Positions 7,519 to 7,884 of a stretch of 12,926 nt of DNA are shown in pieces; the first letter of the stretch is position 1, and each line of letters opens with the position of its first letter. Location: IMG/VR virus record IMGVR_UViG_2563366822_000002. One strand, written 5' to 3'. Made by a program: the position numbers and the translations under genes. The notes under the pieces were generated by a model. That model was not told where the DNA came from and did no database searches. It saw nothing but the letters and a program-made list of their open reading frames with translations. The DNA is from a virus. Lineage: Duplodnaviria > Heunggongvirae > Uroviricota > Caudoviricetes.

Positions 7519-7800
7519 AAAAAAAGCCAGCGACTGACCTGAAAAAGAAGACGCTGGCTAAAAGGCCTTATATGTTTGTAGAGACTTATTTTTCACAGAC
7601 AGCAATGATGCCTGTCAATATATTATCAATATGCGGATTGTTTCAGTTACAGATGCCTTATTAAGGAAAAAAACAGCCAGCACTGACTTTCGGTGGAGAG
7701 GTGCTGGCTCAGAAGGATAGTTGGATTTCACATGATACTTATGCCTGGCGGTATATTTTCTGACAGACAGTGACGGGTGTTGTCAAGATATTGTGTCATT
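7519..7800. repeat. Degenerate tandem duplication (about 150-bp unit, 2 copies), each with an A7 run, a hairpin and an ACAGACAG...TGTCAA.ATATT block
   Basis: Unit 1: A7 (7519-7525), stem GCCAGCG / CGCTGGC (7526-7532, 7552-7558), then cACAGACAGcaatgatgccTGTCAAtATATT (7594-7625). Unit 2: A7 (7667-7673), stem AGCCAGCAC / GTGCTGGCT (7675-7683, 7701-7709), then gACAGACAGtgacgggtgtTGTCAAgATATT (7762-7792). Confidence 0.45.
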
Positions 7801-7884
7801 TATAACCTGAATCAGGGGAGGCCGGAATGTTATCTGGCATTTTTAGCAGAGCCTGAATGCCATAATCACGGCTCCCGGAGTTGG

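Follow-up and report, generated by a model that had tools for sequence, protein, structure and literature searches.

Two probable diverged sRNA gene copies, one of them PasA, lie in tandem opposite the esterase-holin interval of a lambdoid prophage

The interval between the sialic acid esterase gene and the holin gene of a lambdoid prophage very likely contains two diverged copies of a small RNA (sRNA) gene, placed head to tail at 7516-7800 on the minus strand, opposite esterase and holin. Positions are those of the window, that is, the whole 12,926-nt stretch analysed here (IMG/VR record IMGVR_UViG_2563366822_000002). Each copy would begin with a promoter made of a perfect -35 hexamer (TTGACA), the element CTGTCTGT in the spacer and an A-rich, weak or extended -10, and would encode a short transcript in which a variable 5' domain is followed by a conserved Hfq-type 3' module, built of a U-rich stretch, a GC-rich hairpin that acts as terminator, and a U7 tail. 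The promoter-proximal copy (unit 2) is PasA, here probably its PasA-2 variant, an 85-nt Hfq-dependent base-pairing RNA with its seed in its own terminator stem, and the distal copy (unit 1) would end at the esterase stop codon and terminate PasA read-through, giving rise to a 236-nt form. Strand, sizes, ends, Hfq dependence and partners of these RNAs were shown in other strains whose sequence is identical or nearly so. As a feature, the element has been described before, as the pasA locus (Pearl Mizrahi 2021; Zhu 2026) and as EcOnc51/52 (Tree 2014), and only the tandem-paralogue architecture is new, not being described in Zhu 2026. The preliminary description, made from the sequence alone, knew of no function for the element and was in this respect wrong as to its identity.

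The window represents the late region of a prophage of the H-19B/434/Stx1 type, with the gene order NinG, phosphatase, LpxR (minus strand), antiterminator Q, a 252-aa ORF, nanS-p, holin, lysozyme, Rha and Nu1; no Pfam match was found for the 252-aa ORF between Q and nanS-p. The flanking genes are those named at the outset. In particular, Pfam identifies the esterase nanS-p (SASA/DUF1737/DUF6645) at 5667-7517, with its stop codon at 7515-7517, and a P21-type class II holin gene at 7965-8171, both on the plus strand. Positions 7450-7970 match H-19B and a Stx1a-converting phage at 97.7%, phage 434 at 97.1% and YYZ-2008 at 96.5%; NC_011356, the phage named as a PasA carrier by Zhu 2026 (10.64898/2026.05.13.724894), matches them at 96.5%. 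The same interval is found in 1006 of 5426 complete E. coli genomes, at a median of 6 places per genome, and the two units are likewise widespread (677 and 679 of the 5426 genomes, with a median of 3 copies each). In RefSeq, the spacer at 7450-7970 carries no annotation. The Pas sRNAs are missing from both Rfam and RefSeq annotation, so that readers of sequence alone keep meeting unexplained structure. The Rfam 15 covariance models gave nothing in the window at the gathering threshold, with no match to AsxR or AgvB, and a search of 7400-8000 at E <= 10 returned chance-level matches only, with no Pas-named family even at this permissive threshold. A tRNA scan found no genes, and the small ORFs of the interval are frames of 20-38 codons, none of them with support.

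Units 1 (7516-7632) and 2 (7664-7800) are diverged copies of one unit. The elements pointed out earlier are all present, with coordinates correct to within about 2 nt: read on the plus strand, they comprise A7 runs at 7519-7525 and 7667-7673 (the U7 tails of the minus strand), the paired stems, ACAGACAG at 7595-7602 and 7763-7770, and TGTCAA.ATATT at 7613-7624 and 7781-7792. The offset between the copies is 148-150 nt at the A-run and hairpin and 168 nt at the TGTCAA block, which implies about 18 extra nt in unit 2. Self-alignment, one of the checks proposed for the element, places the similarity above chance. A global alignment of 7516-7635 with 7664-7802 that allowed long gaps scored 43 with 85 identities, while dinucleotide shuffles had a mean of -12.0, a standard deviation of 7.6 and a maximum of 19.5, none of 2000 equalling the observed value (z = 7.2); among unrelated segments of the window, the highest score in the same alignment was 22.5. 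The local alignment score of 28 was reached by none of 1000 shuffles (15.6 +/- 2.2), and five collinear blocks are common to both units. That the resemblance stems from chance or base composition has a negligible probability. Tandem Repeats Finder reported no repeat, owing to copies that are too diverged and differ by indels, and global alignment lost significance under harsher gap penalties, both of which would suit such a reading; it is already refuted by the shuffles, by the collinear blocks and by the existence of intermediate and mosaic alleles, such as PasC and the fusion of a unit 1 promoter to a PasC hairpin. The degenerate tandem duplication that had been described between nanS-p and the holin gene is real, but old and indel-rich.

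PasA and PasC are Hfq-dependent sRNAs encoded between the sialic acid esterase gene and the holin-lysozyme operon (Zhu, Shabalina & Storz 2026, bioRxiv 10.64898/2026.05.13.724894), and PasA lies on the strand opposite to its neighbours ('> < >' in Table S6 of Pearl Mizrahi 2021, Sci Adv, PMC8550237). Its northern probe, GCCAGCACTGACTTTCGGTGGAGAG (PMC8550237), occurs at 7676-7700 of the plus strand with 0 mismatches, so that PasA is a minus-strand RNA in the window. In E2348/69 (NC_011601), PasA has been assigned a 5' end at 743499 and 3' ends at 743415 (major, 85 nt) or 743264 (minor, 236 nt) of the minus strand, the 5' ends of that study being derived from RNA-seq coverage, not dRNA-seq (PMC8550237). 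Prophage PP2 of this strain aligns to the window gap-free, with identity over 7480-7711, and carries these ends to 7751 (5'), 7667 (major 3') and 7516 (minor 3'). Together with the probe match, the mapped ends place the 85-nt form at 7667-7751 and the 236-nt species at 7516-7751, both on the minus strand; the fold of the latter shows both terminator hairpins, and it would arise by read-through of the terminator of unit 2 to that of unit 1. Over the 85 nt, the window matches E2348/69 PasA at 74 positions; the 3' 42 nt are identical and the 11 differences fall in the 5' 43 nt. Since this pattern fits the description of PasA-2, a variant common in ST11 (Zhu 2026, 10.64898/2026.05.13.724894), unit 2 probably represents the PasA-2 sequence variant, and the same variant is carried by Sakai Sp12.

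In E2348/69, the abundance of PasA drops in an hfq mutant (log2FC -2.8) and 41 RIL-seq partners are known (PMC8550237). The PasA seed, GCCAGCACCU, is the 5' arm of its terminator stem (Fig. S5, PMC8550237), and the motif of its targets is CUG(A/G)UGCUGG(A/C) (PMC8550237). One site of this motif, CUGAUGCUGGA, complementary to the seed, lies at 7485-7495 on the plus strand, at the 3' end of the esterase coding sequence; it derives from the RIL-seq/MEME analysis, with p = 1.7e-6 for the site in E2348C_0688 (Table S7, PMC8550237). RNAduplex pairing of PasA with the esterase 3' end was no better than with shuffled targets (p ~0.28), whole-length duplex energies being uninformative. Probe and seed GCCAGCACCU are both found in unit 2, which occupies the strand opposite esterase and holin. 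Unit 2 shares with PasA/PasA-2 the locus, the antisense orientation, the exact probe match, the seed, the terminator and the 85/236-nt ends, and differs from E2348/69 at 11 positions of the 5' 43 nt, in the PasA-2 pattern; judged by sequence and context, it is a member of the PasA family.

The two hairpins close both units on the minus strand. Hairpin 1 (7525-7532/7552-7559) has 8 bp and a 19-nt loop (fold z = -3.5) and is followed by U7 (7525->7519); it adjoins the esterase stop codon and its stem sequence is the same as that of PasC. Hairpin 2 (7675-7683/7701-7709) has 9 bp and a 17-nt loop and is followed by G and U7 (7673->7667). Thus, the minus-strand folds of both units consist of a GC stem and then a U7 tail. 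The published 3' ends of E2348/69 fall at 7667 and 7516, at the ends of both U7 runs, so that PasA terminates at hairpin 2 and its U7, and the read-through species at hairpin 1 and its U7. Minus-strand terminators are also annotated at the equivalents of 7516-7538 and 7667-7685 in the phage 434 record OL657226. The earlier proposal that the hairpins, each with its T7 run, could terminate reverse-strand transcription is supported by these ends; a simple terminator scan missed the full stems because of their long loops (17-19 nt). Structure covariation, likewise proposed as a check, was evaluated on 16 distinct hairpins: pairing holds in 95.8% of the stem cells, double (compensatory) changes occur in 3 of the 9 pairs, the covariation score was reached by 0 of 500 shuffles, and slid registers collapse. 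Class I sRNAs have an Hfq module in which a U-rich stretch lies directly 5' of the terminator hairpin and the U-tail counts at least 6 (Ishikawa 2012, cited in Tree 2014, PMC4104026). Such a module is found in unit 2 as CCUUCUGA, hairpin and GU7, and in unit 1 as CCUUUUA, hairpin and U7.

Upstream of each predicted RNA lies a conserved block. Read on the minus strand, the TGTCAA becomes TTGACA, a perfect -35 hexamer, and CTGTCTGT is the reverse complement of ACAGACAG; in minus-strand order, the block consists of AT-rich DNA, TTGACA, N10, CTGTCTGT and (C/G)A(G/A)AAAAT, and the two units are collinear. The putative PasA promoter (7752-7786) has its -35 at 7786->7781, CTGTCTGT in the spacer at 7770->7763 and a +1 near 7751; its putative -10 (TCAGAA, 7763->7758) is weak, and TGT-CAGAAA could alternatively act as an extended -10. 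In unit 1, the promoter-like block (7588-7632) has TTGACA at 7618->7613, CTGTCTGT at 7602->7595 and TGT-GAAAAA(T) at 7596->7588, with AT-rich DNA upstream of the -35 at 7619-7632. The sequence TGTCAATATATTATCAATAT (7613-7632), previously regarded as operator-like, is made up of this unit 1 -35 hexamer and AT-rich DNA, and its internal repeat does not recur in unit 2.

The 5' ends of both PasA and PasC (Table S6, PMC8550237) correspond to the same homologous C, 29 nt after TTGACA, as would result from a 17-bp spacer, a 6-bp -10 and a further 6 nt to +1. Compared with a sigma-70 promoter, in which the hexamers stand 16-18 bp apart and the primary 5' end follows 6-8 nt downstream, the -10 elements match only 2-3 of the 6 positions, although they are preceded by TGT, and a promoter scan did not call them. 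Among 27 unique alleles of the unit 2 type, the roughly 50 nt upstream of the 5' end vary at 2 positions and the first 40 transcribed nt are hypervariable, a comparison partly biased by about 19 upstream positions that the search pattern had fixed. The PasA 5' end may also reflect processing of a longer transcript (Zhu 2026, 10.64898/2026.05.13.724894). We infer that the conserved block is a promoter in both units. As the PasA 5' end lies inside unit 2, downstream of TTGACA, each unit looks like a self-contained sRNA gene.

Two other readings of the hairpins and of the block were weighed against this one. A role on the plus strand, with the hairpins stabilising the esterase 3' UTR or the esterase-holin late transcript or directing its processing, we regard as very unlikely. 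Plus-strand folds are equally stable, the hairpins must be part of the late transcript and of a long 3' UTR of the esterase, and RIL-seq detects plus-strand RNA at 7746-7764 (PMC8550237). Against this, the A-run lies upstream of each hairpin on the plus strand and neither hairpin is followed by a U-run there, the G.U cells of the stem alignment favour the minus strand (4 pair on it only, 1 on the plus strand only), the direct data (the probe, the RIL-seq RNA2 position and CRAC) all concern the minus strand, and prophages of the 933W type have no units at all; the structured plus-strand RNA considered in the preliminary description is disfavoured on these grounds. Equally improbable, in our estimate, is that the hairpins only terminate antisense transcripts coming from the lysis genes or beyond, the block being an operator or another protein-binding site. 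Such an origin agrees with terminators that face the lysis genes, with the longer PasA precursor mentioned by Zhu 2026 and with the weakness of the -10 elements. It is opposed by a major PasA species of 85 nt whose 5' end (7751) lies within the unit and 29 nt downstream of TTGACA, by a perfect -35 at the right distance in PasA, PasC and unit 1, and by the limitation of the 'operator' repeat to unit 1; moreover, no minus-strand promoter was found in 7800-8200, except for a terminator-like site inside the holin gene. Neither an operator nor transcripts entering the element from the lysis region are supported.

The reading of two sRNA genes leaves the status of unit 1 to be considered. Its predicted RNA, a PasA paralogue of about 68-72 nt at 7516-7587 on the minus strand (5' end ~7583-7587), would coincide with CRAC and RIL-seq signals and also forms the 3' extension of 236-nt PasA. 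Hfq-CRAC in Sakai gave two peaks, EcOnc52 in Sp4 (1181998-1182075, minus) and EcOnc51 in Sp12 (2237479-2237555, plus), both antisense to late genes and with nearly equal areas (Tree 2014, PMC4104026). Calibration of the 2014 peak coordinates against NC_002695.2 gave a shift of 0 in Sp4 and of about +137-139 in Sp12. In NC_002695.2, AsxR (located with Rfam) is found 135-139 nt above the EcOnc02 peak and HnrS 132-149 nt above EcOnc10, and in Sp4 both STnc100 and a convergent terminator fit EcOnc05 and EcOnc08 without any shift. The shift begins downstream of the Sp4 IS629 region: the accession of the Sp4 esterase protein is unchanged and the IS629 transposase just downstream has been revised. 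Once calibrated, EcOnc51 and EcOnc52 bracket the predicted unit 1 RNA, extending about 1 nt past its 5' end and 8-9 nt past its 3' end, an assignment that depends on the shift inferred from AsxR and HnrS and on CRAC reads that multimap. Unit 1 is identical in Sp4 and Sp12, which accounts for the equal peak areas and means that the reads are not assignable to one copy. Among the peaks listed in Tree 2014, none lies over unit 2 of Sp12, and in Sp4, IS629 together with a rearrangement isolates unit 1 from any PasA gene. In E2348/69, pasA.E2348C_0688.IGR is listed as a separate sRNA-like RNA, always RNA2 in its chimeras, with 5 partners and 119 and 54 chimeric fragments in two conditions (PMC8550237); its chimeras with escD cover 743267-743294 of the minus strand, corresponding to 7519-7546 of the window, the 3' end of unit 1. 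On the basis of the calibration and the peak edges, rather than of mapped 5' ends, unit 1 very probably makes its own ~70-nt Hfq-bound RNA, seen as EcOnc51/52, and would be transcribed autonomously.

Two candidate assignments were rejected. A placement of EcOnc51 on hairpin 2 would assume that the 2014 coordinates are those of NC_002695.2, and the +137-139 given by the AsxR/HnrS calibration removes it. HnrS (EcOnc10-12, 66 nt) is not unit 1, as it is encoded ~3.2 kb off in Sp12 and is not matched anywhere in the window.

Unit 1 might instead be no gene but a decayed copy that serves as a back-up PasA terminator and insulates the esterase gene from antisense transcription. We consider this unlikely, albeit a serious contender. 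The authors of PMC8550237 treat the region as a 3' extension of PasA, i.e., the 236-nt minor form; in EPEC, the chimeric fragments of unit 1 amount to ~2% of those of PasA (119 vs 4983), as plain read-through would give; unit 1 is devoid of ~18 nt of the 5' domain; and natural alleles with unit 1 only are mostly artefacts of IS insertion. Against it stand the preservation of TTGACA, CTGTCTGT and the A-rich -10, whose spacing is unchanged in 37 of 38 cases, and the EcOnc51/52 peaks, which are 77-78 nt wide, with a 5' edge 1-3 nt from the predicted +1 and no extension toward PasA. The lack of a peak over Sp12 unit 2 and the Sp4 copy with no PasA upstream also speak against it. An extended form of the two-gene reading can be put forward only tentatively, with somewhat less than even confidence: unit 1 may be an overlooked sRNA gene with its own promoter, the true source of EcOnc51/52 and a third paralogue beside PasA and PasC, and the spacer may be a tandem sRNA array whose unit number (0, 1 or 2) and composition change by unequal recombination in AAAAAAA(C)AGCCAGC.

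The unit recurs in related prophages, a search for it having been among the checks proposed, and its number varies. When IMG/VR was scanned with the esterase 3' end as the only anchor, 92 regions were obtained, of which 66 have no unit (the 933W-type spacer), 14 have one and 12 have two. The block stands at a fixed distance after 37 of 38 hairpins, the sole exception being an IS insertion. One-unit alleles carry, directly after the stop codon, either a hairpin of the PasC type or a PasA-like hairpin with a compensatory change from C-G to U-A, and in one mosaic allele the unit 1 promoter is joined to the PasC hairpin. Both units begin with a shared AAAAAAA(C)AGCCAGC repeat, which is a plausible site for unequal recombination adding or removing one unit. 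The units would have arisen by tandem duplication and been gained and lost by recombination in the repeat, and PasC looks like the one-unit form of the pasA locus. Loci with unit 1 only were also considered as proof of an independent module and were set aside, most of them being IS insertions.

Unit 1 resembles PasC in adjoining the esterase stop codon, in its stem (AGCCAGCG/CGCUGGCU) and in the U7AUU tail, but differs from it in the loop and in the whole 5' domain; the promoter and 5' domain of PasC are those of unit 2. The PasC probe had no match in the window within 3 mismatches. By its sequence, unit 1 is a separate paralogue and not PasC. With EcOnc51/52 it has in common minus-sense peaks of 77-78 nt, the esterase-holin spacer of Sp12/Sp4 and a Rho-independent terminator flagged nearby; PMC8550237 lists these peaks as PasA homologues, whereas the calibration used here leads to unit 1 and not to the PasA hairpin. 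The units also recall the AsxR/AgvB anti-sRNAs and the convergent pairs at moron sites (Tree 2014), being short prophage RNAs antisense to the late operon with a conserved 3' terminator and a variable 5' domain, although the AsxR/AgvB site is upstream of the esterase and the sequence is another one.

Tandem Hfq-dependent sRNAs include OmrA/OmrB of E. coli and PrrF1/PrrF2 of Pseudomonas, in which each gene has its own promoter and terminator. PrrF1 and PrrF2 also give a read-through product spanning both genes, PrrH. Tandem sRNAs of this kind are cited in Zhu 2026 as well. These pairs and the present units have in common adjacent genes in the same orientation with conserved ends and a diverged interior, and PrrH resembles 236-nt PasA. 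There is no sequence relationship, however, and the units described here are more diverged, prophage-borne and variable in number between alleles.

The Pas sRNAs rank with the most abundant Hfq partners of enteropathogenic E. coli, where they pair with mRNAs of virulence genes (bfp and LEE). A second diverged copy accounts for 236-nt PasA, for the separate pasA.E2348C_0688.IGR signal and for the EcOnc51/52 peaks. If unit 1 is an sRNA gene of its own, its different 5' domain and inner stem would imply different targets, escD being one RIL-seq partner, and would contradict the literature, in which tandem duplication is denied as a source of Pas copies. There, pasA copies have been reported as never closer than 22 kb and as not being tandem duplicates (Zhu 2026, 10.64898/2026.05.13.724894); the diverged neighbour is not reported there, presumably because it fails the BLAST coverage filter of that study. 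Neither the second copy nor PasC as a one-unit form alters the general view of how prophage sRNAs act.

Both RNAs would be fully antisense to the Q-dependent late transcript and could also act in cis on esterase or holin expression, or be titrated by this transcript upon induction. An intrinsic terminator of the plus strand lies at 7883-7919, just upstream of the holin gene. It implies an esterase 3' UTR of roughly 400 nt that is antisense to both sRNAs, and the esterase mRNA and the Q-dependent late transcript would each carry ~300 nt complementary to both RNAs. An effect of the PasA and unit 1 RNAs on the late transcript by cis-antisense pairing is a possible candidate mechanism. The plus-strand terminator itself is present in one-unit and two-unit alleles.

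Upstream of the esterase gene (nanS-p, 5667-7517), the + strand carries a homologue of PasD2 at about 5410-5580. The minus strand of 5542-5565 matches the PasD probe with one mismatch, and over 5253-5670 the sequence is almost identical to PP2, the prophage of enteropathogenic E. coli E2348/69 in which the ends of PasA have been mapped; therefore the window has the order PasD2-esterase-PasA, as published. The Rfam family STnc100, which is said to be structurally related, gave no match to this region at the gathering threshold. Between Q and the PasD region lies an ORF of 252 aa (4367-5125, + strand) for which no Pfam match was found; upstream of Q, a moron encoding the lipid A deacylase LpxR (lpxR, 2073-3032) is present on the opposite (minus) strand. 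Zhu et al. have described an lpxR moron placed in this way at PasD loci.

At the holin end of the esterase-holin spacer, a strong intrinsic terminator is found on the + strand at 7883-7919, where an 11-bp stem is followed by a T-run; the holin start lies 45 nt downstream. The terminator is kept in spacers with one or two sRNA units, and the 933W-type spacer, which lacks the units and is unrelated, carries a comparable one at the corresponding position. The terminator at 7883-7919 presumably stops esterase transcription in the lysogen and lets Q-modified polymerase pass.

Further promoter-like signals are present around the two minus-strand units. The block of unit 1 at 7596-7624 (+ strand) also reads as a weak promoter, CAGACA-17-TATATT, called by the promoter scan, and that of unit 2 (PasA) at 7763-7791 (+ strand) can be read by eye as CAGACA-17-GATATT. 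An additional candidate minus-strand promoter of unit 1, CTGAAA-18-TATATT, runs from 7646 to 7617, and + strand RNA over 7746-7764 has been reported in RIL-seq of E2348/69. Divergent or overlapping promoters are conceivable here. In addition, a 19-nt inverted repeat (79% complementary) has one arm in the esterase 3' end (7485-7503), which holds the PasA target motif, and the other immediately upstream of the PasA promoter (7797-7815); in a + strand RNA the two arms could pair across the entire Pas array.

The esterase-holin spacer is also a hot spot for insertion sequences (IMG/VR contigs L038, L042, L077 and L143; Sakai prophage Sp4, loci L201, from 831 onward, and L206). IS629 directly adjoins the unit 1 promoter on its upstream side (minus sense), and other elements lie within hairpin 2, the PasA terminator, or within unit 1. 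Zhu et al. describe a terminator-less 'PasA-3', which is probably the form with the insertion in hairpin 2. In Sp4, an IS-associated rearrangement puts pchA beside unit 1.

A search of complete E. coli genomes with 7450-7970 returned around 100 plasmid records (hits H50 and H51; plasmids of ~100 kb and ~93 kb) that carry the esterase 3' end and unit 1 at ~91% identity, without unit 2; these are probably phage-plasmids.

Placing the EcOnc peaks (Hfq-CRAC peaks of Tree et al. 2014) on the current Sakai record requires a correction of ~137-139 nt: the 2014 coordinates equal those of NC_002695.2 up to ~1.182 Mb and are lower by this amount at 1.268 Mb and 2.234 Mb, the change seemingly lying where the IS629 region of Sp4 was revised.
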